Positions 5,341 through 54,767 of a stretch of 64,000 nucleotides of DNA are shown piece after piece. The DNA is from a virus (Duplodnaviria; Caudoviricetes). The stretch spans positions 1 through 64,000 of IMG/VR virus record IMGVR_UViG_2596583697_000001. The stretch is one strand, 5' to 3'. Below the pieces are notes generated by a model, which saw nothing but the letters and a program-made list of their open reading frames with translations, did not search any database and had not been told where the DNA came from. Within the stretch, counting starts at the first letter, position 1, and each line of letters opens with the position of its first letter. A program made the translations under genes and the position numbers.

Positions 5341-7029
5341 TTATAGTGGCTTCCATACATAGTTACTTGGATCAACAACCCAATCTGAGGGGGCTGGTGT
5401 CCATGGTGTTGCAACTGGGCCACTTTCAAACTTTAAGTCCCATATAATAACTGATTCTCCTACTTTGATAGTGGATGCTTCTTCAAATCCTGGAGTAAAT
5501 CCAGCCCATGCATTTGAATAATCATTGGTGTTTGAAATAATATATTGGATAGACTCACCAGTAGTATTTCCTGGTAAGTTTTTATAAGATGCTACATCAT
5601 TAACACCCATTCTATAGCCAAACCTCGAGCCGATAGCAGATGTTTGGTATTTAAAAGACATAACAAACGGACCTATCATTGAACTTAAATCTTGAAATGC
5701 AGGAATTGGGCGGTAATATGGATCATTACTTGCATTAGTCGTCACCTTAAGTTTATATTCATCTACCCAAGAAGTATCCACTCTGGATGTTACACCACTT
5801 GTTCCTGTACGGTTTTTTATAATCGGGAGTTTATTGTATTGGTTAGTGTACAGAATAAGGTTCTCATGCTCAAGTATTTCTGCTGGCATGTAACCCATAC
5901 CTATATACTTACTGTTCGCCTGTTTTGTTTCAGTCATATTGGAACCATCTGCACTAGCAGAGTATCTGACAACCGTACTTATGACTACAACCTTTAGATC
6001 ATAATAGCTACCCTGTCTGTTGACAAGTAAAGCAAACTGCTGATAATTAGAATTTGGAATGTCTACATAGTTGCTATTCATAACATAATTAATTCCACAA
6101 GAGTTGGCGTCCAACTCAAAATAAGCCTTTTCACCGTTTGAGTCTGAGTACTTGCCTTTACGATAATAAACATCTACCTTTAGCCTATCACCATCTCCAA
6201 ATGAAATAATGGATTTATTTCTTTCAGGTTCGTAAAATACGAATATCTTTGTGAAATCTCCTCTAACCTCGAAACCCTCATCAAATGTTACTGAGTTATC
6301 ACGCAGGTCAGCATATTCGTCGCCAATATAAATTACATCTTTTTCTGACAAACCGATGGCAGACACAATATTACTCTTTATCTCTATAGCACCAGATTCT
6401 GCTTTGTTATTCAATTCAAGTGTATTAAAGACTTGCGCGATAGTATATGAAACAGTGATAAGAATAAAACCAGTATCAAGTGTTATTCCATGCAAAGTTT
6501 TACCGGTAGCTCTTAGGTAATATTGTTTTGCGTTTTCCAGTCCTGAAATAACATATGACATATCTGATGTATTATAAATATCACCAGAAGAGGAGATTAC
6601 TGTTTTTTGATATGTATATAGTGTAAAAGAGTAGGAATTTAGTGATTCACCTTGCGACTGTGAGTAGTTAAGTCCAACCTTATATGCTGATGTCTTAATA
6701 ATTTCGCCATCAGAAACGGATAAGTTAAATATGGGTTTTGAAAAACAATAAAATGGAGTGCCAATATCCTGAAGATCAGATTCATTGTTATTTACATCTA
6801 AAACCGTTATATATACAACATAATACACACCGTTAACTAAGCCTGAGTTTGTTGGTATGGTATAAGATTGTTTCATGGTACTTTCTGTGTTGTCATATAC
6901 AGTTACACCAGTTTCATTATTCTTGACAATACATCGGACTTTATATATCTGATTACCACGCCAGGTAAACTTTATTTCTGTTCCTATAGTAGCGTCAAAC
7001 GGCTCTAAGGGATGTATTATTGAATACAT
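5341..7029 (-). CDS. Tail protein with Fn3-like domains and a C-terminal carbohydrate-binding-like module
   Basis: ISGLENAKQYYLRATG Fn3 pattern; C-terminal KFESGPVATPWTPAPSD. Confidence 0.65.
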   Translation of the reverse strand: MYSIIHPLEPFDATIGTEIKFTWRGNQIYKVRCIVKNNETGVTVYDNTESTMKQSYTIPTNSGLVNGVYYVVYITVLDVNNNESDLQDIGTPFYCFSKPIFNLSVSDGEIIKTSAYKVGLNYSQSQGESLNSYSFTLYTYQKTVISSSGDIYNTSDMSYVISGLENAKQYYLRATGKTLHGITLDTGFILITVSYTIAQVFNTLELNNKAESGAIEIKSNIVSAIGLSEKDVIYIGDEYADLRDNSVTFDEGFEVRGDFTKIFVFYEPERNKSIISFGDGDRLKVDVYYRKGKYSDSNGEKAYFELDANSCGINYVMNSNYVDIPNSNYQQFALLVNRQGSYYDLKVVVISTVVRYSASADGSNMTETKQANSKYIGMGYMPAEILEHENLILYTNQYNKLPIIKNRTGTSGVTSRVDTSWVDEYKLKVTTNASNDPYYRPIPAFQDLSSMIGPFVMSFKYQTSAIGSRFGYRMGVNDVASYKNLPGNTTGESIQYIISNTNDYSNAWAGFTPGFEEASTIKVGESVIIWDLKFESGPVATPWTPAPSDWVVDPSNYVWKPL

Positions 7030-7050
7030 ATTTCACCTCCTTATTGGTTA

Positions 7051-7311
7051 TTAATGATTTACATTTACTACAAATAAATTAACCATATTGTTCTCAGGGG
7101 CGCAAACCCACACCATTTCATTAACTTGTAAAGTTCCATTATATTTAACTGGATACTCCGCATTTTTATAATTGATAATATATCGTCCATCAGGATTTTG
7201 TCTTACCACTCTGACGCGGAAAGTTCTATCAAAAGATTGATGATTTATTAAATCCTTAACTGCCATTAGCATGGATTCAACATATTCTTTAGATGATTCA
7301 ATATAATTCAT
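7051..7311 (-). CDS. Small tail protein (OB-fold-like)
   Basis: FDRT...VWVCAPENN motif after tape measure. Confidence 0.55.
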   Translation of the reverse strand: MNYIESSKEYVESMLMAVKDLINHQSFDRTFRVRVVRQNPDGRYIINYKNAEYPVKYNGTLQVNEMVWVCAPENNMVNLFVVNVNH

Positions 7312-7548
7312 TTAATCACCTTCAGATTCGTTTAATACTTTATATAGAGTTTCTACAACAATTTTTATTGTATTTTTTAAATTTTCAGAATGAAAAAATG
7401 ATATCGCTTTTATAAGTGCATCATCATAATCATCACATTTGCTTGTTGCTTCAGCTAGCCTTAGTTCAACATTCCCCCAATTTTTAACAATTTCATCATC
7501 TACTATTTTTACAACAATATTATTTATTTTTTCTTTATCATATTTCAT
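7312..7548 (-). CDS. Hypothetical protein
   Basis: 78 aa ORF with AAGGAG RBS. Confidence 0.6.
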   Translation of the reverse strand: MKYDKEKINNIVVKIVDDEIVKNWGNVELRLAEATSKCDDYDDALIKAISFFHSENLKNTIKIVVETLYKVLNESEGD

Positions 7549-7596
7549 AAATTATTCTCCTTTTATCTTAGAAAAAGAGAGATATTTTCTATCTCT

Positions 7597-10500
7597 CTAT
7601 TTTATAAATTTAGATTTTGATTGTCTAATTGCAGTTGCAACTGAATCGAACATTTCTTTCATAGCATCATCGGTATCTCTCACATTCGGGAACGATAAAT
7701 CTCCATATTGAAGATTCACAACAAAAGGTTCTGACCGAGTAGATGTATTCATATTAGCTAATGTCTTGCTGTAATCTGGAATATTTGGTTTAAAACTATA
7801 AGCAGACGCTAAGTTTTTAAGTAGATTATTTTGCTGTTCCTCATTGAATACGGCTTCACCCATATGTAATACAGCTGGAAGTTCGTCTGGATCAAGTTTC
7901 TTAAGCCCAAGAAGCTTCATAGATGCTTCTCTATCAGAATCAGAAGATGAGCCTACTAATCCTCTTGTAATACCGTCTTTACGACTTGTTGCTAATTTAA
8001 CTCCTGGGCCACTATTTACGTAGTCGCCCTTTCCGGGAGTTCCGGGGCTTCCGTCTTTACCTCCTCCATATCTGGTGTTATCATTATCACGATCTCGCTC
8101 ATAATCATAACTGTCTTCTAAATTATCCCTGACTTCTTTTAGCACATCAAGCATTGAAGACACATTGTCGGTAAGTTGCTGCCAACTAGAAGTATATTCA
8201 GATATCATTCCTGAGTTCTTATTATACTGTTCTAGAGACTTTAACAGTTCAGTGGCAGTATCTTTCAACCCACTCTGAATACCCGTCAGAATCGCATCTG
8301 CGTTAGCTGTGGTGTTGTTTGTTGTGCCTAAGTGATCAAAAATGTTCTGTAAATTATCAGTAGCAGACATTTTCTGATTAAGCTGAGAGAGAAGACCATT
8401 GATACCTTTTACGGCTTCAGCATAGGTTATTTCACCTGCCTTATAGGAAGCTATATAATCCTCTAATAAGGACTGAATGTTATTTGTTGAGTCTATCTGA
8501 TCCTGATACTTTTTGAGCTGTTCAGCAGTATTAACGTACATTCCTGAGAACGTATTAAATAGGGCAGTATCGTTACCTGAGAGGACTTTATCTTTCCAGC
8601 CGGCACCGAGAATTTCGTCAGCCTTTGCTTCATTTTGTCCTTGTACAATCTTTTCATTAATTTCAGACCACTTGTCACTGATTTTCTGTAACGCATCGAT
8701 CTGATCTTGGAGGCCATCGTTATATAAATCTAAGGATTCCTGCGCTTTATCTATCTGTTCCTGAAGATTGTACTTTTCTAAATTGTACTGTGAATCGAGA
8801 AGAGCTTGTTGCGCATCTCTTTCAGCCTGTGCGTCTTTTTCGTAATCGACGATTCCATCACGGACAACTTTGTTTGTCTTCTGATTTCTGGCACGCTCAA
8901 GATCATACTGTTTTTGCTCTAAGTCAAATAGAAGCTTACGCTCCTCATTGCTTTTTTCCAGAAGTTTTAACTTTTCCTTTAGAGCATCTATTTCAGCCGT
9001 CTTTTGCTCGTTAACAGCATCCTTCTGTTCATTGAGTAAGTCAATTTGATCCTTAATAGCTCCCGTTACAGCAGATATAACCTGATCCTGTTCACTCTGT
9101 ACTTTACTTAGTCCTTCAGCAACCTTTTGTAATTCAGAAGAGAAGTTGCCCATATTTTCAAGAGGCATTTTCAGCAATTCTTCATTGAATTTTCTGATGT
9201 TCTGAATTGCACTTGACATTTCGGAGTTTACCGATTGCAACTGTTTGTATAAATCATTCCAGTTATCGGAGCCAACCGTGTAATTATCCATAACGTCTTT
9301 TATCAGAGAACTTTGTTTCTGAAGCTGTCCAACTACGGTTGCCCCATTTGAAATTAAACTCTGATAATAATTAGCGTCTAATTTCCCTCCAGAAGCTACA
9401 ACATCATCGCCCCAGCCCCGAATAGCTGCCCCAATATCCTGATACATCGAAACAAGAATAGAAGCATTTTCAATTGGCATTTGGAGTAATTTGTTGTTAA
9501 ATTCTTCCTGTTCAAGCTTCAGCCCTTGTATTTCATTCTTTGCAGCCCTTACTTTTGCCTTTAATTCTTTATAATATTTTGAATTTGTATCAAAATTTAC
9601 GGCACGAAGGTCGGCCATTTCAGATTCCCATTCAGCAATATTTTGTTGGTTGCCAGAAATCAAACCCCTATTATTATTTATCTGCCGTTTGTAGAAATCT
9701 GCATCAACAATCTTTCCACGCGCTTCCATCAATTCCATTTGAGATTTGATTATTTTATTGGACTGTTGAAGTTTTTCGTTCTCAATATCGATTGAGGCAA
9801 CTCTATTTTCATGTAAATCTCGAATAGTTTGAATCTGTTTTTCTCTTCCATCTTCTAGCTGTTCTTCAGATTTTTTCAGTCTATCATTAGCATCTATTGC
9901 TGCTTGAACTTTTTCGGCCAAATCACTAGGTAAAGATTCAATATCTACTCCACCATTCTCAATTTTGTCCTTATATCCAGATGGAATAGCCTTTAAAGCG
10001 TCTTCATATGCCTTTGAATATGCTTCGACTTCTCGTTGATATTGCGGAAGCAATGTTTCAGTTTGCATTTTTAGCATACTTTGCAACGCATTTTCTTTTG
10101 ATGCACTAGGCGCACCAGATTGAATCATTGTGTATAATTCGCCCAAACTTAATCCCGCTTTATCAGCATAACTTTGTAACTGAGATAGGCCATCTATTGT
10201 GTTGCCAAGGCCATTATCGAAAATTGATTTTGCTTTATCAAATTCTTCTTGTGTCAATCCAAGGTATGCAATTGTATCTTTATTGGCTAATTCTTCTAAT
10301 TTTGCATACTCATCTTGCAGTACTTTAGTTCCACGAGCGATCCAATCAATAGGCTTTTCGGTGTCTTTTTTATCTTTTTTAGAGCCAGATTTTGACCCAA
10401 CAGAGCCTATTCCGCCAAAGTCAGGAGTTTCAACCTGTATACTAGCAGCTTCGTTCAATTTATTAATAATCTGGTTATACTTGTTGGCTTGCTTAGTAGC

Positions 10501-12963
10501 GGCAGTCCATGCTTCTTGTTGTTCTTGACTAACAGCCATACCATGGGAACTAGCACGACTTAAATCCATTCCATCAAGACTAGCCAGTCCAGAAACAGAG
10601 TCAAATACGATATTATAATACTTAGACCATGCAGAGGATAAACTTTGAATTAACTTCTGGTCAATTTCAGCTTTAGCTTGTGCCATGGTTTTCCAATTCT
10701 CAACATCTAAACCATAGGCTTTACTTAAATCATCAAACAGTGATTGATTATTATTAACAATCGTACTGAAAAAGTCTTCATTTCCTGACAACTTATAGGC
10801 CATTGCAGACCTAAATGCAATAGCGTCATTATCGTAGGCAGTCTGAAGCTGAGTCATCATATCTTCGGCACTAATCAAACCGTTTACATACTCATTAACC
10901 GCTGTACGTAATTGGGGGTACTGTTTGACAATTGATTCAAGTGATGAAAGTCCGATTAATCCTGTCTTTTTGTATTGTTCACCAACATTCTTTAGAAGAT
11001 CATATGCGCCTTGCATGTTAGAAATTAAATCTGTAGACAGGGTATACCCATCGGCATAATCTTTAAGCGCTTTTGCTGCATCTTTAGCACTCATACCAGT
11101 TTCAGACATTAGCTTCTTCAATTCAGAGAATGATGCAATTGTCTCTTCATCGATTTTGCCAGATTTAACGAGTAACACATATTCCTCTATTTTGTCGATT
11201 GGGAGATTCTCAAACGCAGCAGAGAAGCTTGGTTTCTCATCCCCTTTTCCCTGTTCAAGATACAATTTTTCCGCTTCAGCCGCACTGCCAGCAGCCTGTG
11301 CAACTTCCAACCATGCATCAATTTCTTCCTGTGTGTTGATTGAATTTTCTTTAAAGAATTTGGTTGGATCATAACCATCAAACTTTGCCGTTGTGGTCTT
11401 AATGGCATTTTCGTACTTTGTTGCAAGATCATCAGCATCTACAGATAATTTCAGACGTAAACTGTTTGCATCGGCATCTGAGATATTCAATTGAGAAATA
11501 ACGTTATCTAAAATTTCTTTGTACTGATTTACATAATCGGTGACATTCAGATCTTTGGCATCTAAGGCGAACAAACTGTTGATTGCAGATTTTACATTTT
11601 CATCAGAAGATACACCTTCCACCATATCTACTATAGAAGACTTCACTTTTATAGCGTTATTTTCCAAATCGTAGGCGTTAAATCCATTTCTAATGTATTC
11701 GCTAATAAAGGATTTCTGAGAATTTGTTAAAGTATCATATCCACTTACCAATTGTGGTATTTTCTGTAGATACTCATCAATATAGCCAGAATCAATAGAA
11801 GCAAGTTCAGCATTTAAGGTCTGCCATTCCTGAACATATAGTTTAAGGTTTTTAGCCTGGTCAGAGGTAGGATCAATATTTGCCTTTGCAAGTATTTCGT
11901 CCATATGTTTTGAGAAAGTATCAATATTCCTCTGCAAATATCCCTCTATGTCTAAATCCATATCTTCATCTGAAACATTGAAACCGAGTGTTTTCAACCA
12001 GTCACTCTTACCGTTCATCTTCTCAAATGGGCGAGAATTTGTATAATCGAAAAATGCCTTTACTGTTTCATCATTAAATAACTTCGCAGCCTCTGCGCCG
12101 AAACGGGAAGCCTGGCCCGATACAGTCTCCAAGTCAAATGAACCAAACTGTCCAATAACATCAGTTCCCATAAGTTCATTGCGTTTTGCAATTGCACCCT
12201 CTCCAATGGTTTTTAAATTACTGGAAGAGGCAGACTTTTCTAATTCTAATTGACGTTCTCTTTCCAAAAGCTCAATGGTATCTGACAATGCACTATTCTT
12301 ATCAATAATCGCCTGATTCTCTGCATCGTATCCTTTTACTAAAGCAGGATTTATGGCTATTAAATCCTTGATAAGTCCGTTGTATTCCTCCATCTGCTCC
12401 TTAGTAAGTGAAACGTTATTTCCATAATCATCTACGCCTTTCGATAATTCTGCAAATCTATCGCTTAAAGAGTCTAATGTACTTTGATGTTCGTTAATCG
12501 TCGAAATGCTGGATTCAAGAGTTGACTTTAATTCACTTGCCTTACTAATTGCTATTTCATTACTGCGGATATAATTGTCTATTGCTTTCGCAGTTAATTC
12601 AATTCCTTTGAAAACAGCAAACATAATTGCTGCATTCAATGCCATATTAAAAGCTTTGGCTCCAAGCGCGGCAAAGTTAAAAGCCTTGCCCGTTTTATTT
12701 ACAACATCTGGGTACTGTTTAAATGCTTCAAGTGATTTGTCGGTTTGATTCGCATCGTTGAGGAATTTGGTTAAGGTTTCATCAGCAACGCCGGTATTCT
12801 TAATAAATGGCTCCCATCCGTCTGTGGTATATTCTTTTAATACGTCCGGAGATAGATTCCCAATTTTGCTAAAAGTTTCATTTACTTCATCGCTTATTTT
12901 TATTGCCTTTGTTTTGAAGGCATCTAAAAAGCTAAATCCATTTTCACTGCTATAATTTGCGAG
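7597..12963 (-). CDS. Tape measure protein, exon 2
   Basis: Long coiled-coil ORF; frame stays open >100 codons upstream of the track ATG (12645) with no start or RBS: LANYSSENGFSFLDAFK...AKAFNM. Confidence 0.85.
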   Translation of the reverse strand, partial: LANYSSENGFSFLDAFKTKAIKISDEVNETFSKIGNLSPDVLKEYTTDGWEPFIKNTGVADETLTKFLNDANQTDKSLEAFKQYPDVVNKTGKAFNFAALGAKAFNMALNAAIMFAVFKGIELTAKAIDNYIRSNEIAISKASELKSTLESSISTINEHQSTLDSLSDRFAELSKGVDDYGNNVSLTKEQMEEYNGLIKDLIAINPALVKGYDAENQAIIDKNSALSDTIELLERERQLELEKSASSSNLKTIGEGAIAKRNELMGTDVIGQFGSFDLETVSGQASRFGAEAAKLFNDETVKAFFDYTNSRPFEKMNGKSDWLKTLGFNVSDEDMDLDIEGYLQRNIDTFSKHMDEILAKANIDPTSDQAKNLKLYVQEWQTLNAELASIDSGYIDEYLQKIPQLVSGYDTLTNSQKSFISEYIRNGFNAYDLENNAIKVKSSIVDMVEGVSSDENVKSAINSLFALDAKDLNVTDYVNQYKEILDNVISQLNISDADANSLRLKLSVDADDLATKYENAIKTTTAKFDGYDPTKFFKENSINTQEEIDAWLEVAQAAGSAAEAEKLYLEQGKGDEKPSFSAAFENLPIDKIEEYVLLVKSGKIDEETIASFSELKKLMSETGMSAKDAAKALKDYADGYTLSTDLISNMQGAYDLLKNVGEQYKKTGLIGLSSLESIVKQYPQLRTAVNEYVNGLISAEDMMTQLQTAYDNDAIAFRSAMAYKLSGNEDFFSTIVNNNQSLFDDLSKAYGLDVENWKTMAQAKAEIDQKLIQSLSSAWSKYYNIVFDSVSGLASLDGMDLSRASSHGMAVSQEQQEAWTAATKQANKYNQIINKLNEAASIQVETPDFGGIGSVGSKSGSKKDKKDTEKPIDWIARGTKVLQDEYAKLEELANKDTIAYLGLTQEEFDKAKSIFDNGLGNTIDGLSQLQSYADKAGLSLGELYTMIQSGAPSASKENALQSMLKMQTETLLPQYQREVEAYSKAYEDALKAIPSGYKDKIENGGVDIESLPSDLAEKVQAAIDANDRLKKSEEQLEDGREKQIQTIRDLHENRVASIDIENEKLQQSNKIIKSQMELMEARGKIVDADFYKRQINNNRGLISGNQQNIAEWESEMADLRAVNFDTNSKYYKELKAKVRAAKNEIQGLKLEQEEFNNKLLQMPIENASILVSMYQDIGAAIRGWGDDVVASGGKLDANYYQSLISNGATVVGQLQKQSSLIKDVMDNYTVGSDNWNDLYKQLQSVNSEMSSAIQNIRKFNEELLKMPLENMGNFSSELQKVAEGLSKVQSEQDQVISAVTGAIKDQIDLLNEQKDAVNEQKTAEIDALKEKLKLLEKSNEERKLLFDLEQKQYDLERARNQKTNKVVRDGIVDYEKDAQAERDAQQALLDSQYNLEKYNLQEQIDKAQESLDLYNDGLQDQIDALQKISDKWSEINEKIVQGQNEAKADEILGAGWKDKVLSGNDTALFNTFSGMYVNTAEQLKKYQDQIDSTNNIQSLLEDYIASYKAGEITYAEAVKGINGLLSQLNQKMSATDNLQNIFDHLGTTNNTTANADAILTGIQSGLKDTATELLKSLEQYNKNSGMISEYTSSWQQLTDNVSSMLDVLKEVRDNLEDSYDYERDRDNDNTRYGGGKDGSPGTPGKGDYVNSGPGVKLATSRKDGITRGLVGSSSDSDREASMKLLGLKKLDPDELPAVLHMGEAVFNEEQQNNLLKNLASAYSFKPNIPDYSKTLANMNTSTRSEPFVVNLQYGDLSFPNVRDTDDAMKEMFDSVATAIRQSKSKFIK

Positions 12964-13001
12964 CGTATTACAGAAAAATGGAATAAATAATATACAGTTA
13001 C

Positions 13002-13030
13002 TTGCAATAATTATATATTAATGTTAAAAT
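13002..13030 (+). promoter_or_regulatory. sigmaA promoter for the Zn-ribbon cargo gene
   Basis: TTGCAA-17bp-TAAAAT with extended TG. Confidence 0.6.
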
Positions 13031-13060
13031 TCAGGTAAAAATCTGATTAGAGGGAATCGT

Positions 13061-13573
13061 ATGGGAAAGCCTATATATTTTTGCGAACATTGTGAAAAAA
13101 CAAATGAGAATAACCGTGAGTTAGTGTCTGCTGGATTTCTTCCAGAAAGACTTGATTTTAAAAGAGGTTACATTTATGGAGACTTGTGCAATAACGATTT
13201 CTCCATCTGTCCTTACTGTGGTGGTGAGTTATTAAAAGCCGACATAACAGAAGAGGATTACATTTTGCTCGGAAAAGCTACCAACAATAACCGTAAACTC
13301 CTCGATGCCATGGTCGAACTCCATAAGAAAGATATCATAGAGTATGAACTGAAAATGTCTCAATTCAGAAATCAGTATGAACAGGGGCAACAGGCTCAGA
13401 AGCAGGAGAGTAGTAGTAATAGCAACATACCTAAATGTCCGTACTGCAATTCAACCGATTTAAAGAAAATCTCTGGTTTCTCAAAGGCAGGAAGCGTTGC
13501 GCTCTTTGGAATATTCTCCGTTGGTAAAGTTAGCAAGCAATGGCATTGCAATAGTTGTAAGAGCGATTTTTGA
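13061..13573 (+). CDS. Zn-ribbon membrane-associated protein (intron cargo, antisense)
   Basis: CEHC, CPYC, KCPYCNST...WHCNSC; hydrophobic SVALFGIFSVG segment. Confidence 0.85.
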   Translation: MGKPIYFCEHCEKTNENNRELVSAGFLPERLDFKRGYIYGDLCNNDFSICPYCGGELLKADITEEDYILLGKATNNNRKLLDAMVELHKKDIIEYELKMSQFRNQYEQGQQAQKQESSSNSNIPKCPYCNSTDLKKISGFSKAGSVALFGIFSVGKVSKQWHCNSCKSDF

Positions 13574-13578
13574 GTATT

Positions 13579-13616
13579 AAAAAAAAGTAGGAGATTATTC
13601 CTACTCTTTTTTATTT
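13579..13616. terminator. Bidirectional intrinsic terminator inside the intron
   Basis: A-tract, AGTAGGA/TCCTACT stem, T-tract. Confidence 0.75.
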
Positions 13617-13719
13617 AACGATTAAAAATAGCCAGTCCATTGACTGACTCTATAGATGAATGAATAAAATATAACCTATGACATTTAAATCGAGCAAAAT
13701 CGACATAAACTAACCAAAG

Positions 13720-13800
13720 ATCAATAATAAAGGAACTAGAATATTCTAGTTCCTTTAAAAATATGCCCTTGAACCACGTAGGTTACCAAGGTACTATCAA
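13720..13800 (-). ncRNA. Candidate AbiF RNA antitoxin (type III TA-like)
   Basis: Tandem promoters upstream; hairpin CCUUG-GU-AACC-UACGU-GGUU-CAAGG; ends in a 30-bp perfect palindrome (13728-13757). Confidence 0.65.
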
Positions 13801-13804
13801 CTAT

Positions 13805-13870
13805 ATTATATGTTGATTAAAAAAATTTAGTCAACGTATTTAGTATAAACCAATAATTTGTTTTTGTCAA
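13805..13870 (-). promoter_or_regulatory. Two tandem sigmaA promoters driving the small RNA
   Basis: TTGACA-17-TATACT (13870-13842) and TTGACT-18-TATAAT (13834-13805), no ORF downstream. Confidence 0.75.
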
Positions 13871-13882
13871 TCAGTTATTTTT

Positions 13883-14803
13883 TTATTGTAAAGGACCTAA
13901 ACTTCTCCAGTTACTTGGAAGTCCCATCATATTTCGAATCTTTTTAATAGGAATAGTGGTCAATTTCGATGATAACTCACTATACAATAAATCTATTTGA
14001 TCAAAATACGACATATATCTTTTATTCGGAAACACTAATTTAAAAGCTACCATCACTGAAAAATAATCATTTGTATTTTTAGTTTTATTAAAATATTTAA
14101 AGTAATTATTATTACTAAGGTACGAATAAGATGAGTATGAATATAACAATTCATCATGCGCACATCGATTTCTAATTGTAGAAAGAAAAAATAGACAATT
14201 AGCTAATTGATGATCTCTAATTCCCCACTTAACTCTTTTTGCGATATCATCTTGATTATGCTGTAGCATATTTGAATAAAATTTACTAATGTCACCCATG
14301 GAAATAGCATTCACTAAAACCCATAAAGGTATGTAGTTTTTTCCGTTAACGTAATGCGAAATTGATAAATCATTTTTAATATTTAATGTGATTTTTTTAT
14401 ATAAATTACTTAACAGCTTACAAGTTTGTTCATATTTTTTTGTTCCTCTAATATCAAAATTTTCCATGTTAAGATAATTTTTATAACCATATTCTTTTGA
14501 AAATTCAAAAGCAACAAGTGACTTAACTTGCTTTTCAAATTCTAATATGTATTCTAAAGTTATCAATCTTAAATTTCTATCAAATTCGTACAAAGCATAG
14601 ATTTCCTCTAACCGAGTTCCAGAAAGATACTTTTCATAAGGTGTAGCTGTTTGAAGAAAAGGCTCTTTGTACCCGTTTATTAGATTATAATAGTTCGTTT
14701 TAATAATAATCTGTTTAGCTCTTTTCTTATTTTTAATAATAATTCCACGACTTTTTAATATTCCAATTTGAGTCCGAGTATCCCTAAATACTTTTTCCTC
14801 CAT
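13883..14803 (-). CDS. Abi family (AbiD/AbiF, Abi_2) HEPN ribonuclease (intron cargo)
   Basis: QIGILKSRGI, NYYNLINGYK, LYEFDRNLR, HY...IPLWV motifs; HEPN RNRCAH (RxxxxH); lower GC than flanks. Confidence 0.9.
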   Translation of the reverse strand: MEEKVFRDTRTQIGILKSRGIIIKNKKRAKQIIIKTNYYNLINGYKEPFLQTATPYEKYLSGTRLEEIYALYEFDRNLRLITLEYILEFEKQVKSLVAFEFSKEYGYKNYLNMENFDIRGTKKYEQTCKLLSNLYKKITLNIKNDLSISHYVNGKNYIPLWVLVNAISMGDISKFYSNMLQHNQDDIAKRVKWGIRDHQLANCLFFLSTIRNRCAHDELLYSYSSYSYLSNNNYFKYFNKTKNTNDYFSVMVAFKLVFPNKRYMSYFDQIDLLYSELSSKLTTIPIKKIRNMMGLPSNWRSLGPLQ

Positions 14804-14868
14804 ACTCCCATTCCCCTATCATAAGTAATGCTTCCAATTATATACCATAATTTTCCATATTTCTACAA

Positions 14869-14880
14869 GAACGTAGGTTC
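14869..14880. promoter_or_regulatory. Possible LexA/DinR (Cheo) box next to the abi promoter
   Basis: GAAC-GTAG-GTTC. Confidence 0.4.
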
Positions 14881-15311
14881 TTATTTAGGGGGTGTATTTT
14901 TTGATACATTAACTATTATACGTTTGCAAGCCGTATAAAAATCTGGGAGTATCTACCCAACTATTTTTGGTACATCGCATAGCTACGATTGACTTTTTAT
15001 TATTGTCATCTGACAACCTGGCCTGACTCTACCTTCATGAAATATAATATTCCATGTTCCCTGGGAGTCGATGGGGGCAACACTTATCATAAATTAATAT
15101 GACAGACCGTTTCCCTGCTGATTAGCCATTTTCATGGCGATTCCAGTCTCAAAACCACGCAGTCACGCATGGTCATATAAGGAATTTTTCTAAAGCCCTC
15201 TTGTTTATGTGAACATACATAAACTCGTTCCCGTTTTACCTATGGCTTTTAACCATAGCAGTAGCGACTTCTTGAGCCTCGCAGCCAATTGTACCTACAA
15301 CGATTTCGCTG

Positions 15312-16871
15312 ACCCAAGCTTTTTGCACCTAAAATCCCTCCTCCTATTGCACCGATTGTTCCTAAACTACTTAATGCTTTGACAATACTGTCTATGCTAT
15401 TAACGCCAACCGTTCCAAAATCAACAAAAAACTTTATTAAATCAGAATCGATTATAGTGTTTGACAATGATTGGAACGCGGCTTCGAATTGACCTAACTT
15501 TGCCACAATTGATTCTAACCATTTTTCATTTTCTTCATAAGCTGATCCAGCAGAGTTCATTGAAGCCTCTAATGCTTTTTGTACTTGTCCAGACTGAAAT
15601 GCCTGAATTACAGCCGCACCTTGATTGCCGCGCTGTTTCCCGAAAAGTGTTTCTAAAAGATCGGCACGTTTCGTCTGATCTAATGAATTAAATACCTTAG
15701 AAACACCTTCAAGAATTTCGTAATAATCTTTGAATTTCGATGGATCTGCGTCGTTCATAATATTAACCTGGCCTTTTGTCAGATTAAGAATATGAGTTTG
15801 TATTTTACTAACTGATTCAAGCCCTTCTGCTTCTTCGCCAAGTTCTTCTAAAGCGCCTTTCATGCCCATTACACGCATTTGACCGACTTTTAAAGCGTTG
15901 CCTAATTCTCCAGCATTTTGAGTGATTTCAGATCCACCAGTTAAAAGCGCTAGTGATTTGTTAATATCCATTCCACCAAGAGCCAGTGCAGAGGCAGCAT
16001 TTCTTAATCCTTCACCGAGCGATCCTGCATCTGTCGCAAATTCGTTTCCAAGTTTGTTTAGCGAGTCCACAATTGTAATACTTTTTGAACTTTCGATGTT
16101 AAAACTTTTCATTGCTGTTACGAGATCAGACACGGCAGTCTTATCATCAACTTCACCTACATTAGCGTAAATAGAAGAAATTTTAGCTAGTTGTTCTGCC
16201 TGGTCAATATTAAATCCAAGTTTTGCCCATGTCGCCGTTTGTTCCACTAAACTTGATACAGATCGTCCAAGTTCTTGTGCATTTTTATTGGCATTTACAA
16301 GAAACTGATTGTACTTGCTATCTGTCTCATCTGTAACCTTATAAAGATTTGTCATTGCCGTATCGAGTTTTACGACGTTTGAAATCATTTGTTTCACAGA
16401 CTGTACCACAGTCATTACAGCCCCAGCAGATACAATCCATTCAGAGAATTTACGTGCACTTGAAGCGAAAGTGTCGCCAACACTTTTACCAGTAACCCCT
16501 AAGGCGTCAGCTTCAGCCTTTACACCTCGAAATTTCTTTTGTAGATTACTAAAATCTGATTTATTGTCGATTTCTTTCAGTTTGATGAGTAGTCCGTCAA
16601 GTGTGCCACCAAAATCTTTTTCTGCTGCGGAATTAACTCTACGCCATGCTTGTACTTGATTGGCAAAAGTAATTTTATCTATCTCATTTAGATTATTTTT
16701 TACCTTTAACAATTGATTTGCGTATTTAGTCGCAGTTTTATCATCTACATCTACACCAAGTTTTAATTTATATTGTTCTTTTACCTGGGTAATTAATTTT
16801 GGTAATTGCTCATTCTTCAATTTCGATGAATCAATCATAGTTTGAAGAATAAGAGAAATATTATCAGCCAT
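15312..16871 (-). CDS. Tape measure protein, exon 1 (TP901-type/PhageMin_Tail core)
   Basis: LDTAMTNLYKVTD, WAKLGF, DSLNKLGNEFA, LFGKQRGN; the track ORF runs 20 non-TMP-like residues past ...GAKSLG into the intron. Confidence 0.9.
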
Positions 16872-38356: not shown

Positions 38357-39037
38357 TGAACAAATTTCTCCTTTAAATAATGAATTTTAATTGTCTAATT
38401 CTTCTTCGGTGGGATTTCACACCCTAAAATTGAATTTGTTTGAGCTGTCAGCTCAGTTCTTATTAATAATTTGGACTTACTCCAATTGTTAAATTCAAAC
38501 CGCTATTGTGCAGAGCGATGTACTTTTGACGAGTAATCACAACTCGTAGTTATCTCTATTAAAACAACATTTATTAATCGTATCTGTGAACGATGCACTC
38601 TGCTTGATTTAATATTTATACTGTTAGCCGGGAGGCGTATCCGACATCTCTTTAAGACCTTTTGAACGATAAGGCGTGATAGCTGCCCATTCTATCCTTA
38701 ACAGTATTTTTAATAACCGCATAAAACGGGTATTTTCTAAGTATTGGTTTAGGATTTTCCTTTCCGTTGGCATGGGCTTAAAGTCTCCATACCGACTTAT
38801 TTCGAGGAGGTGTCGTTAACCACTTACCGAGTGTAAGTCAATCAACGACTTTATGAGAATAAGTTGAATTATGAGCTATTCTTATGTATTTTTTGATTTT
38901 CTTTTCTCTCTTACCTAGGGCTCCCTTATAATTTTTCTTCGAAATTAATGGAAGTTTCCCATACCTCTTACGGAAGAGTTCCGCGAAAAAATGATAGGTT
39001 AAAATTGAAAAAAGTAACTTTTCATCTCAATAATGCC

Positions 39038-39340
39038 TTATCTACAAGCCTTTTGATACTTACATCCATTTTTAATTCTATTTTTAATTCCGGTTGCAAT
39101 TTTAAAAGTAGGATAAATACATTTTTCTAAATTTAATTCTGGATTTCCAAATAGATTTTTGCCCTGCATAGGTTTTCGTTCAACCAAAGTAAATCTTCCA
39201 AGCTTGGGAATTTCAACTTCTTCTCCGCAGATAAGTTTCTCTGCTGTCAAACTAGAAGAAGTATTAAAAACTTCTTCTACAGCATAATCAGATAACATGC
39301 ACCTCTTTGCAACTTCTTTCACAAATTCGCTTTTATTCAA
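39038..39340 (-). CDS. Divergent HU/IHF-like DNA-binding protein
   Basis: MNKSEFVKEVA...VEIPKLGRF..PTFKIA. Confidence 0.85.
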   Translation of the reverse strand: MNKSEFVKEVAKRCMLSDYAVEEVFNTSSSLTAEKLICGEEVEIPKLGRFTLVERKPMQGKNLFGNPELNLEKCIYPTFKIATGIKNRIKNGCKYQKACR

Positions 39341-42161
39341 ATAATTTACCTCCGTATCTTTTAAATTTTATATTAAAGATATCAATATCTCCCTCGTTTG
39401 ATTCTTCTATGTATGTGTTTGATGGTGTTAGTTCATACATTATTTCTGTCAAGACATCGTTCTCATAGTTAAATAGCGCATAAAATAATAACTTCGAAAT
39501 ATGTGAATATTTTTTCATGTCTACATATTCTATCAAGGATAGCATCGTATGTTTGTTAATTTTCAATTTACTGATATCGTATACTAATGATTCCCTGTAT
39601 CGATCAGTTAATAGAAACTTTTCAGATGGAGCATAGTATTCTTTCGACCATATAGCATTAATTGAAGAATTAGTAGACTCGCACATTTTCACAATTTTAT
39701 TGAGCTGTTTTTTGTTTACTGAATTTTGACTAAAATCACCAAACCTAAAACACGATGATAATGGAGTAAAATCACTTCCTTTTGTTTTATCCGATCGATA
39801 TCTATTAACTTCTCTTAATAAATAATCCATCGCTGTATGGTGATAGTTATATTTCTTCTTATCAGGGTTACGATATCCCTTGGTCTGAGCTATAAACCCT
39901 ATAAAAGCTGGTTTTATTGCTTTGTTATTAAATGTGCGTCTATCCCACTTGTCTTTTATCGTCTTAAGTTCTCTTACAGAAGAAATATCAAATTCCTTTT
40001 TCGCTTTATCAATTTCAATACACGATAATACGTTTAAAATACAAATATCGTGATAGATCCCTTCAATGTCTTTATAGCATTCGGCTAAAGATTTTCCGGA
40101 TCGATTTATGTAATCCCACATCAAAGTATTTAATTCCTGAGATAAATTGACTATCTCACCGATTTTGTTTTCGCTTGTTTTGTAATCCAAGTCCGCCTTA
40201 TCTGCATTTGTGTAGTGTCTTTGAGATTTCTTAGCGGAGACACGATTGGCTGGAACTTTGAAATACTCGTAGTTCTTTAATGCAGCGTCAATTAATATTT
40301 CATTGTCAGTTACTATCATTTGGTCTGAATCGAAGTCAGCTCCGCTTAATCGTTCTAAGATATTTTCTCCGATAGAGTTAATACAAACAATTTCATCTGT
40401 TAAATTAAAGTATTTATCAATTAGATCATGCTGCATGTTGGTTGATACCAAAATATTCGATGTTGATATATGTGGGCTACGGCAACCTAAGACTTTTTTA
40501 CCATACTTATATCGAGTAGTATGGATATGTCCAGATGGGAGAGAAGTAGTTCCGTCAAATTTCCCGATACTATGGAGTAACATTTCAAATGGATTTCCAA
40601 ATAATACAGAATAATTACCATCAATTAAAATGTGACCTTTTTTAATATTTTTCAAGTAAGCTTTGCATGTTTCCTTTTTAAAATCATAATAATATTTAGT
40701 GTCATAAAATGTATCTGAAAGATTCATCATCGTGTAAATAATATCATTTTTATCTTTAAATACATTGCTCAATTCTTCTCCATCGTCTACCGCACACTTA
40801 ACATGATATTTTAAAACATCACTATCTGTATTTAACAGATTTACATATTCAAGAGACGGCTTTAGCAACGTATGCACATCATCTGATGATAGCTGTAGTG
40901 TATTTAATAATTGGTAATGAGTTTGAACCATCCTGCCATCAAAGAAGTGTGTCTTTTTTTCATGTTTTACTATGCTAAATGTAGGGTCTATATTATTAAG
41001 CCATTGCTCGATAGGAGCAAATTTTATGTATTTTATGCTATTTGGAGTGGTAATAAGTTTTATATCACCAATATCTTTCGCAAGAGTAATATGATCTTTG
41101 TGAAGTTGCGAAATACTGGAGATGTTATTATCTTCAAACCATTTCTGTATATTTGTATTAAAACAGCATGATTTAAAAAATCTATTTCTCAAAAGAACCA
41201 TTCCATATTTTGAATAGTCACCAAGAAGACTGATGTCTATCAAAGATTGTCCATCAAATATTGAGTTGGATATCTCAGCAGTACCTTCTCGCACCGATAT
41301 CTTCTTTTCAGCGTCCATTTCTACGATAATAGAATCTTCAGAAAATGCACTATCGTAATCTGGGATTATTAATATATTTTTAGGATCTATCGTGAGTAAA
41401 TCTATAGCACTGCTGGTCGGCAATGAAATATAAGACTCGAAGGCTGCTAAATCAATCAAATCTCCCTCTTTAATATCAAGTCCACATAAATCCCATTCAT
41501 GAATGTCTGCGTATAATCTTTCGTCTACAAATAGACACTTTCCGACTCTCGATGATCCAGATGTCCTTTTTAAACGAATATAATGTGTGCCATTACAATT
41601 AAATCCACTTTTATATAGGTAATCTCTTAGTTCTTTTTTTGTATATGAGACTTGCACTGTTTTGACGGTATATACTTGATTTCCATACCTATCTTCTTCA
41701 AAATTAAAACCGTCTGGTAGCTCGAAACGGGTGATTTCTCTGGTGGGAGTGAGAGCTACAACTCCTACTATGACACCATCATCTAAGGCAATATTGTCTG
41801 TAAAATGAAGATCGTCAAGTAAGTATCCATCCATAACATATGTATTGGCTTTGACCTTATTAAAATCTTTGCTACTATACTTAAAAGTTACATTTATAAT
41901 TTTATCAGTAAATTCTTTCCCATTGTGTGTAAAAGTGAATGTATCGCTTTTATCGTAAATGCGACTTACAATCTCTCTTATTTTTTCACTATCAAGGCTA
42001 AAATCCAGTGAGTTAATAAACCGATTGAAATTCACATCGCCCTTCTTTGTCAATAATCTATAGCCTATTTTATTTTTCTTTTCGTCTAAAAAATTGTTTG
42101 CAAGGAACAAATCCTTCGCATCAACGCTTGGTATATAAATACAATTTCTTTTTGACTGCAA
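39333..42161 (-). CDS. yonO: YonO-like single-subunit (double-psi-barrel) RNA polymerase
   Basis: RSPH motif, catalytic LSGADFDSD, IGEIVNLSQ, IEIDKAKK; next to HU as in SPbeta. Confidence 0.85.
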   Translation of the reverse strand: MQSKRNCIYIPSVDAKDLFLANNFLDEKKNKIGYRLLTKKGDVNFNRFINSLDFSLDSEKIREIVSRIYDKSDTFTFTHNGKEFTDKIINVTFKYSSKDFNKVKANTYVMDGYLLDDLHFTDNIALDDGVIVGVVALTPTREITRFELPDGFNFEEDRYGNQVYTVKTVQVSYTKKELRDYLYKSGFNCNGTHYIRLKRTSGSSRVGKCLFVDERLYADIHEWDLCGLDIKEGDLIDLAAFESYISLPTSSAIDLLTIDPKNILIIPDYDSAFSEDSIIVEMDAEKKISVREGTAEISNSIFDGQSLIDISLLGDYSKYGMVLLRNRFFKSCCFNTNIQKWFEDNNISSISQLHKDHITLAKDIGDIKLITTPNSIKYIKFAPIEQWLNNIDPTFSIVKHEKKTHFFDGRMVQTHYQLLNTLQLSSDDVHTLLKPSLEYVNLLNTDSDVLKYHVKCAVDDGEELSNVFKDKNDIIYTMMNLSDTFYDTKYYYDFKKETCKAYLKNIKKGHILIDGNYSVLFGNPFEMLLHSIGKFDGTTSLPSGHIHTTRYKYGKKVLGCRSPHISTSNILVSTNMQHDLIDKYFNLTDEIVCINSIGENILERLSGADFDSDQMIVTDNEILIDAALKNYEYFKVPANRVSAKKSQRHYTNADKADLDYKTSENKIGEIVNLSQELNTLMWDYINRSGKSLAECYKDIEGIYHDICILNVLSCIEIDKAKKEFDISSVRELKTIKDKWDRRTFNNKAIKPAFIGFIAQTKGYRNPDKKKYNYHHTAMDYLLREVNRYRSDKTKGSDFTPLSSCFRFGDFSQNSVNKKQLNKIVKMCESTNSSINAIWSKEYYAPSEKFLLTDRYRESLVYDISKLKINKHTMLSLIEYVDMKKYSHISKLLFYALFNYENDVLTEIMYELTPSNTYIEESNEGDIDIFNIKFKRYGGKLFE

Positions 42162-54680: not shown

Positions 54681-54694
54681 TGTAAATAATATCA

Positions 54695-54767
54695 GCAGAG
54701 TGGAACGGCTTACATAGCCGTTTTAATGCACATGGCAAAGCCATACGGTCACAAGTCCGTAAGCATT
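54695..54767 (+). ncRNA. Twister ribozyme, circularly permuted
   Basis: GCA-GAGUG-[P1 GAACGGCU/AGCCGUUU]-UAA-UGC-AC-[P3 AUGGC/GCCAU]-[P4 ACGG-UCACAAGU-CCGU]; pseudoknots CAC/GUG and AC/GU. Confidence 0.7.

Follow-up and report, generated by a model that had tools for sequence, protein, structure and literature searches.

A predicted group I-type intron with a gene cargo in the tape-measure gene of a temperate phage

The window analysed here is a stretch of 64,000 nucleotides (nt) of DNA from a virus of the Caudoviricetes (positions 1 to 64,000 of IMG/VR record IMGVR_UViG_2596583697_000001), and its minus strand carries a tape-measure gene that is split in two. An open reading frame (ORF) at 16871-15249, which contains the PhageMin_Tail domain, is followed by a frame that stays open from 13017 to 7597, and the sequence between the two exons is predicted to be a group I-type intron with a complete ribozyme at its 5′ end, a cargo of genes and terminators after it, and a short tail that bears the 3′ splice site. 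In the annotated upstream ORF, the final 20 codons belong to the intron. All coordinates refer to the window and are collected in Table 1; related loci are designated, where a label is needed, by L or G numbers.

Table 1. Features predicted at the tape-measure locus, with the polymerase candidate encoded elsewhere in the window.
Feature	Position	Strand	Description
Tape-measure exon 1	15312..16871	minus	520 codons; ORF and Pfam PhageMin_Tail; end fixed by P1 pairing
Group I-type intron (predicted)	12964..15311	minus	2,348 nt; length, in-frame junction, covariation
Tape-measure exon 2	7597..12963	minus	1,788 codons and stop; starts CUCGC(A), 12963-12958
Intron 3′ tail	12964..13007	minus	44 nt; UUGCAAG 13007-13001 (tether partner) to omega-G 12964
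Ribozyme module	14917..15311	minus	~395 nt; pair counts on 23 sequences
P1 3′ strand; P10 strand	15277-15271; 15282-15278	minus	
P2; P2.1	15258-15240; 15224-15203	minus	
P3	15184-15180 with 15061-15057	minus	
Hairpins A; B; C	15174-15153; 15146-15118; 15115-15075	minus	
P7; P8	15069-15065 with 15029-15025; 15056-15036	minus	
P9; further hairpins	15016-15003; 14989-14974 and 14959-14944	minus	
P1-loop pseudoknot	15295-15291 with 14973-14969	minus	GGUAC with GUACC; 5/5 pairs changed on both sides
Terminal ribozyme hairpin	14917..14937	minus	loop holds CUUGCAA 14930-14924, 5′ partner of the tether
AbiD/Abi_2 gene	13883..14803	minus	306 amino acids (aa), tape-measure strand; Pfam and PADLOC matches
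Promoter-like site before AbiD	14865-14837	minus	promoter scan
Antisense zinc-ribbon gene	13061..13573	plus	170 aa; conserved cargo gene of the family
Zinc-ribbon promoter-like site	13002-13030	plus	TTGCAA-17-TAAAAT with TG upstream; overlaps tail motif
Candidate small RNA region	13728..13870	minus	promoter-like sites 13870-13842 and 13834-13805 (each 11/12 matches), then terminator 13757-13728
Terminator	13757-13728	minus	13-bp stem
Bidirectional terminator	13616-13579	both	U8 on minus strand; -16.5 kcal/mol, z = -6.1
Third terminator-like site	13649-13630	minus	terminator scan
YonO-type single-chain RNA polymerase candidate	39333..42161	minus	942 aa; upstream of late gene block

The ends of the element are fixed by the exons and by two pairings. 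The last codon of exon 1 is GGU, and similarity of this exon to its relatives breaks off at residue 512-520. The tape-measure frame halts at ...GA(K/N)xxG in every relative and restarts with LA(Q/N).., LVQ.. or VAQ... The ligated junction is in frame in all seven introns that have both exon sides (7/7); in the window it is ...GAKSLG|LANYSS..., the predicted spliced RNA would read ...AAGCUUGGGU|CUCGCAAAU... across 15312|12963, and ligation would yield 520 + 1,788 = 2,308 codons. In P1, the exon end CUUGGGU (15318-15312) pairs with GCUCAAG, and the distant clade of relatives has GCAGGGU/GCUCUGU or GCUGGGU/GCUCAGU in its place. All 23 sequences have U•G as the splice-site pair, 93.8% of P1 cells are paired, three of the seven pairs are compensated, and the guide sequence TGCGAGGCTC is invariant in the same 23 sequences. 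The P10 strand GCGAG, directly 5′ of the P1 strand, is also invariant, and (U)GCGAG (15283-15278) pairs with the exon-2 start CUCGC(A). P10 fits the exon-2 start (CUCGC, CUUGC, CUUGU, GUCGC or AUCGC) of every intron with a located 3′ end, and a G always precedes that start; the guide strand is without any variation, so the pairing fits but does not covary. Since P1 and P10 are arranged here as in a group I intron and a G precedes exon 2, splicing is placed after U15312 at the 5′ end and after G12964 at the 3′ end. An intron with its 3′ splice G at 12964 had been proposed in an original prediction made from the window alone, and it is borne out by the P10 fit, the omega-G, the in-frame junction and the covariation described below. 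A different candidate for P1, CUAUGG/CCAUAG (15258-15240), was rejected; the upstream ORF's stop codon follows it closely, and it is P2, which covaries (CCAAGG/CCUUGG and others).

The fold of the ribozyme module was evaluated on 23 distinct 5′ modules, which were aligned with MAFFT and in which the pairs of a named structure were counted, the same structure with its 3′ partners slid by 1-3 columns serving as control. Standard pairs occupy 87.5% of cells across the 23 sequences and 31-49% with slid partners, 40 pairs have changes on both sides compared with 8-12 when slid, and the covariation score is 0.393 compared with 0.07-0.14. P3 and P7 are both 100% paired, with both-side changes in 3/4 and 2/5 of their pairs, respectively; P8 is 85% paired, with such changes in 2/5 pairs, and they are found also in P2 (3/6), P2.1 (5/7), hairpin A (5/9) and hairpin C (3/6). 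P3′ and P8 lie between both strands of P7, and P3 reaches back over the intervening hairpins, a predicted layout that is the group I pseudoknot. A second pseudoknot joins the P1 loop to the P9 region and has 95.7% of its cells paired, with the variants GGUAC/GUACC, GGUGU/ACACC and AACGC/GCGUU; we know of no standard group I name or element for such a pairing. Hairpin B differs between the clades by eye and is misaligned, and was excluded from the formal count. Helices 10 and 13 of the structure score 50% and 47%, and MAFFT misaligns these hairpins between clades; folding of the sequences one by one recovers the last ribozyme hairpin despite the misalignment. Earlier assignments of GACUC/GAGUC to P6 and of UUGUCA/UGACAA to P8 were overturned by the covariation of P3, and these helices are now P7 and P9. 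On these comparisons the element is probably a group I-type intron, one that would presumably splice itself with guanosine.

The distance between this ribozyme and its 3′ splice site had been proposed to be bridged by two long-range helices that loop out the cargo. The first has the exact coordinates proposed: UAUACGG-CUUGCAA (14937-14924) can pair with UUGCAAG-uaa-CUGUAUA (13007-12991) over 14 base pairs (bp) with a 3-nt bulge. Alone, this helix is modestly above chance, with 17 of 500 mononucleotide-shuffled tails giving a duplex at least as stable against the final 100 nt of the ribozyme module. Comparison of homologues divides it into a CUUGCAA/UUGCAAG half that is conserved and compensated and a UAUACGG/CUGUAUA half that is not conserved, so that there is no continuous 14-bp helix across the family. 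The former is complementary over 7 bp in 21/21 distinct paired-up loop/tail sets, a count biased towards a match by the location of tails through a search for the loop complement. CUUGCAA/UUGCAAG is found in four sets (the window, L012, L014 and L161) and CUUCCAA/UUGGAAG in 17, with no mixed set, and the difference between the two variants is a compensatory G-C to C-G change. At each locus with the loop motif and enough downstream sequence, the complementary 7-mer precedes a P10-compatible splice site by 23-40 nt (37 nt before the omega-G in the window); the exceptions are L155 and L169, whose sequence probably stops too soon, and L163/L175, in which a tail is present but no exon can be recognised. 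The UAUACGG/CUGUAUA half makes 7 bp only in the window and L012, 3 bp in L014 and 2 bp in L161, and it competes with a local stem (14936-14932/14922-14918) that must open; the local stem of the terminal hairpin folds in 21/21 sets, with clade-specific sequences. The second proposed helix, of AAAAAU (14968-14963) and GGGUAGAU (14958-14951) with 12988-12974, can be drawn in the window only and is not conserved: the tail stretch is missing in L012, the tail of L014 is different, and the GGG of this helix is part of a covarying local hairpin (helix 12). That the short 3′ piece docks across the cargo on the ribozyme's P9-side end nevertheless holds, by way of the conserved half; as judged from the loop/tail sets, the dock is a 7-bp loop-to-strand pairing that clade-specific extensions lengthen to up to 14 bp. 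A third loop variant, CUUCCGA, occurs in L150 at about position 1300, on a contig that stops before the tail, and its predicted partner is UCGGAAG.

Several points weigh against such a tether. Its support amounts to one compensatory event between two clades. L176 (=L151, L166), which bears cargo, is without the loop hairpin and keeps the tail motif, with a partner of only 4 bp; L165 is without the canonical loop motif and has a 6-bp variant, UUUCCA/UGGAAG; and L170, again cargo-bearing and without the loop hairpin, has the tail motif UUGAAAA with no visible partner. On the plus strand, moreover, the tail motif doubles as the -35-like hexamer of the zinc-ribbon promoter, and use of this promoter could explain its conservation. 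The complementarity could in that case be incidental, the tail motif being kept only as the -35 element of the antisense gene and the 3′ splice site being chosen by P10 and the omega-G alone, an explanation that accords with the spacing and upstream TG of the promoter-like site, with the persistence of the motif in L176 and with the tail of G003, which by eye (no scan) reads TTCCAA, 17 nt, and TATAAT preceded by TGG. It is nonetheless unlikely, given that the loop 7-mer is fixed at 6/7 positions while the surrounding stem differs fully between clades, that the sole difference is a compensating one, and that a cargo-less intron of the family (G004) has neither the loop nor the tail motif. Promoter selection alone would also not favour the change in the tail, because TTCCAA is a poorer -35 element than TTGCAA. 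RNA pairing is favoured because the compensating change sits in the loop on the far side of the cargo, and the tail motif may serve two purposes, as pairing partner and as promoter.

Two protein-coding genes occupy the cargo. The product of the sense-strand gene matches Pfam PF07751 (Abi_2) over profile positions 2-183 of 184 (1.1e-41) and PADLOC AbiD over positions 2-273 of 277 (9.9e-51), and by these full-length family matches AbiD is a predicted defence gene. Two promoter-like sites directly follow its stop codon and are themselves followed by a two-hairpin stretch and a terminator, which possibly specify a small RNA of about 75 nt beside AbiD; this candidate has no Rfam match. The antisense zinc-ribbon protein matches generic zinc ribbons or clusters of 'hypothetical protein' only (PHROGs, PADLOC, PDB profile, Atlas), and its matches in Pfam are weak zinc-ribbon families, each below the gathering score. 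The idea that it is a recognisable homing endonuclease was dropped, as five aligned sequences share no conserved nuclease motif. By Pfam, no transposase family is present in the cargo of the window, where Abi_2 and the sub-threshold zinc ribbons are the matches, or in the cargo ORFs of L012. Ahead of AbiD, the minus-strand segment 14900-14800 contains the palindrome AAGAAC-CUAC-GUUCUU and a promoter-like site. This segment recurs, with a 71% match, in the cargo of another intron family that occupies this gene site (L007, L008, L010, L011). In sequencing run X1 its depth is 131-246, and several contigs have it at their ends; it resembles the boundary of a repeated cassette or else a promoter under regulation.

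Relatives of the element were drawn from viral contigs, species genomes and metagenomes. A first genome-wide pattern returned at least 120 stretches, mostly by chance, with five true by blastn among 80 loci examined, and a metagenome pattern, checked on known loci, yielded 30 loci. L012 and L014 are close copies, 88% and 87% identical to the window in the ribozyme; L005/G005 and others form the distant clade, and G001/L162 represent a chimeric form. One member, the 461-nt intron G004 (L145 4891-5369), lacks cargo; it comes from a metagenome-assembled genome that carries the label Acetivibrio. Members commonly measure about 1 kb and consist of the ribozyme, the antisense zinc-ribbon gene (protein of about 135-145 aa) and the tail, as in G001 (985 nt), G003 (1,008 nt) and many metagenome copies. 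Expanded forms have extra units between the ribozyme and the zinc-ribbon gene, namely AbiD in the window, four antisense ORFs in L012, a cargo of about 5 kb in L014 and one of 13.4 kb in G005. Comparison with L012, L014 and L161 indicates that cargo has been swapped within a constant frame, and in DNA contigs of two public runs the frame is unchanged while 13441-14920 or 13611-14800 is replaced by 2,252 or 2,749 other letters, respectively.

A search with exon 2 for related loci retrieved the L014 record only; tblastn of the start of exon 2 against phages and megablast of the region against GenBank phages gave no match. A pattern search of viral contigs for the intron-less ligated junction returned none (0), and no intron-less allele with this exon 2 was found; in L002 and L003 the tape-measure gene is uninterrupted but diverges after the site. 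With reasonable confidence, the sequence comparisons define a previously unmodelled group I-type family at one tape-measure site (...GA(K/N)xxG | LA...) in temperate phages of Clostridia. L144 (G002), L146 (G005), L160 and L174 have tandem 3′ modules, that is, one to three extra copies of the antisense zinc-ribbon gene, tail and exon-2 stub inside the cargo; these copies come from diverged sources, which suggests that the 3′ module has recombined or homed repeatedly, and they create alternative 3′ splice sites. The same tape-measure site is occupied by an unrelated intron-like insert in L004 and L007-L011 (around 6800-8700), where the reading frame ends with ..KNF(A/D) and is followed by sequence that by eye resembles a group I R element. 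Some genes (L009-L012) have a second interruption about 130-200 codons upstream.

Expansion with AbiD and terminators could also mean that the tape-measure gene has simply been cut, leaving a defective provirus in which the helices are relics. The record is indeed a provirus estimated to be 69% complete, the U8 terminator is strong in the sense direction, and some relatives look broken (L163/L175, as above, and L160/L174, in which the first tail is followed by a stub with stops). A dead gene is distinctly unlikely, however, as in the window both exons are intact, with 520 and 1,788 codons free of stops, and P1, P10, the omega-G and every covarying helix are preserved; expanded cargos also recur in L012, L014 and L161, whose exon-2 frames are open and whose ribozymes, measured in L012 and L014, are 87-88% identical.

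The original prediction had noted two terminator hairpins on the transcribed strand within the loop. Both were found again, together with a third terminator-like site. It offered two ways past them, the first being read-through by a YonO-type polymerase or antitermination, with completion of the tape-measure protein tied to the late programme. A candidate gene for such a polymerase lies in the window: the 942-aa ORF reaches 25.3 bits (7.8e-6) with Pfam RdRP, just above the cut-off of 23.8, and by tblastn it matches a 'hypothetical protein' of the SPbeta-like Bacillus phage BUCT082 (2e-11, 22% identity over 70% of the protein), although it has no PDB match. By these Pfam and BUCT082 matches, the ORF is a candidate YonO-type polymerase. 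From 42 kb to 2.9 kb, every ORF of at least 350 aa lies on the minus strand. The dependence on read-through, on the other hand, is not specific to the intron: the late block, which lies upstream of it (18.8-38.7 kb), holds at least seven similar minus-strand terminator-like hairpins, and for this reason read-through would be needed for the whole late block and not for the intron alone. Terminator-like sites on both strands of the late block number 17, compared with 9.3 +/- 3.4 in shuffles. In the parts of PMC5467207 that treat SPbeta, YonO is described as pausing little, as transcribing the late genes in the form of a single operon, and as being without most of the domains conserved in multi-subunit polymerases, including the flap that controls hairpin-dependent pausing and termination. 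A Skipping-rope RNA (38619-38706, minus strand, 63.3 bits) heads the late block, immediately downstream of the YonO-type gene, and the same parts of PMC5467207 mention an 'unannotated non-coding RNA' where the YonO-transcribed SPbeta operon starts; by analogy of position, the two may correspond. Elsewhere in the window, a Type-P5 twister ribozyme is found at 54694-54760 on the plus strand (51.9 bits, gathering score 37.6).

The second way was assembly of the intron from two transcripts, in which RNA of exon 1 and the ribozyme would end at the cargo terminators, the tail and exon 2 would be made separately, and the two would be joined by the tether and P10. The three sense-strand terminator-like sites of the cargo accord with this arrangement, the complementarity of ribozyme end and tail would permit association, and in G005 as much as 13.4 kb, with six sense terminator-like sites, separates the halves. 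A separate transcript would require a promoter before the tail, yet no conserved sense promoter is found there; the sole promoter-like site (13039-13010) would start at about 13003, inside UUGCAAG, and promoter-like sites in the region are no commoner than in shuffles (17 compared with 13.9 +/- 4.2). Hairpins similar to those of the cargo also stand between other late genes. Most members of the family, furthermore, have a cargo of about 0.5 kb that is filled by the antisense gene; because 10 of the 13 such small cargos have no sense terminator-like site (expanded cargos have 1-6), splicing in cis would be the ground state of the family. Trans-splicing is thus unsupported and very improbable as an account of the element, and about as improbable is the narrower proposal that members with expanded cargo, such as the window and G005, assemble their tape-measure mRNA from two transcripts through the tether and P10. 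If true, this would give the first natural example of a trans-splicing group I intron from outside organelles, and the prophage would keep an essential late gene as two insulated pieces with lysogeny genes between them.

From the boundaries, covarying helices, cargo genes and terminators observed, we infer the following course of expression, read-through and catalysis. In the lysogen, host polymerase would express the independent transcription units between ribozyme and tail, namely AbiD with its promoter and terminators, the possible small RNA and the antisense zinc-ribbon gene, and the terminators would insulate them. During late lytic growth, processive, terminator-insensitive transcription, perhaps by the YonO-type polymerase encoded in the window, would read through the cargo. 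The intron would then fold. Its catalytic helices would all be drawn from the first ~395 nt, and the 3′ splice site, 1.9 kb further on, would be set by omega-G 12964 and by P10 (GCGAG with exon CUCGC), with the 44-nt tail held by the 7 bp of CUUGCAA/UUGCAAG on the loop of the last ribozyme hairpin. Splicing in cis would give a tape-measure protein of 2,308 aa. Cis-splicing after terminator read-through is the most likely course, and one that we consider probable. The evidence that speaks against it is as follows. Rfam gave no group I match, either at the gathering score or at E <= 10, in the window, seven relatives and L143, so the case for an intron rests on sequence comparison; the place of P4-P6 is taken by the three hairpins A, B and C, to which P4, P5 and P6 cannot be assigned with confidence. 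The bidirectional terminator with its U8 tract would stop host polymerase, and the YonO-type protein used as query has no match in the records of L012 (71% complete), L014 (34% complete) and G001. Among the public sequencing runs listed with the stretch none is of RNA, and the RNA run X22 gave 0 reads on it, which is no test of splicing.

If splicing holds, a temperate phage can park genes that are expressed in the lysogen within an essential late gene without any cost to the latter, and the slot is reused, as relatives carry other cargo in the same frame. The element would also represent a compact ribozyme family, 461 nt long without cargo, that current models miss; its 7-bp loop–tail pairing would be a testable device for locating a 3′ splice site kilobases away, and the terminators in its cargo would offer a natural case for whether YonO-type polymerases ignore intrinsic terminators.

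Parts of this arrangement are familiar from other systems. In the td, nrdB and sunY introns of phage T4, ORFs with their own expression signals form peripheral loops, and the core is brought back together by long-range pairing; these ORFs are sense-strand homing endonucleases inside a hairpin loop, whereas the cargo here follows the last hairpin, contains terminators besides a defence gene and an antisense gene, and appears to be bridged by pairing between a loop and a strand. Organelles have trans-spliced group I introns whose two halves are likewise joined by base pairing, but no evidence was found here for separate transcripts. We know of no natural trans-spliced group I intron in bacteria or phages, and a limited literature search showed none; nor did a limited search turn up any published group I intron with a defence gene, an antisense gene or terminators as cargo. 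With its own promoter and terminator in a prophage late region, the AbiD gene resembles prophage 'morons' and defence islands, although it lies inside a gene, a position that the intron would make harmless. Group I introns in prophage tape-measure genes are already in print: the passage of PMC2504315 on Bacillus cereus-group prophages places them at three positions, IVS1-3. Compared by description only, these introns interrupt the same type of gene at defined positions, and defence-gene or antisense cargo is unmentioned in that passage. IStrons are group I introns fused to an insertion sequence (IS); as far as they are described in the portion of PMC4227781 drawn on here, they have forward-strand ORFs and in all cases an IS part 'downstream of the P9.2 subdomain', with sizes of 482 to 2582 nt. 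They differ from the present element in that their insert is a transposon, marked by IS605-type transposase genes between IS ends, whereas the cargo of the window is without a transposase family by Pfam; in their forward-strand ORFs, whereas the constant cargo gene here encodes a small antisense zinc-ribbon protein; in being scattered like transposons, whereas the element here is found at one homing-like site in one gene; and in their ribozymes, described as IA2-like with P7.1 and P7.2, whereas a single hairpin lies here between P3′ and P7′. In CdISt1 and BcISt1, however, going by that portion of the source, the ribozyme is complete at the 5′ end, a variable insert with genes follows the last hairpin of the P9 domain, and a short end carries the 3′ splice site, as predicted for the window, and by this analogy the IStron is the nearest known architecture.

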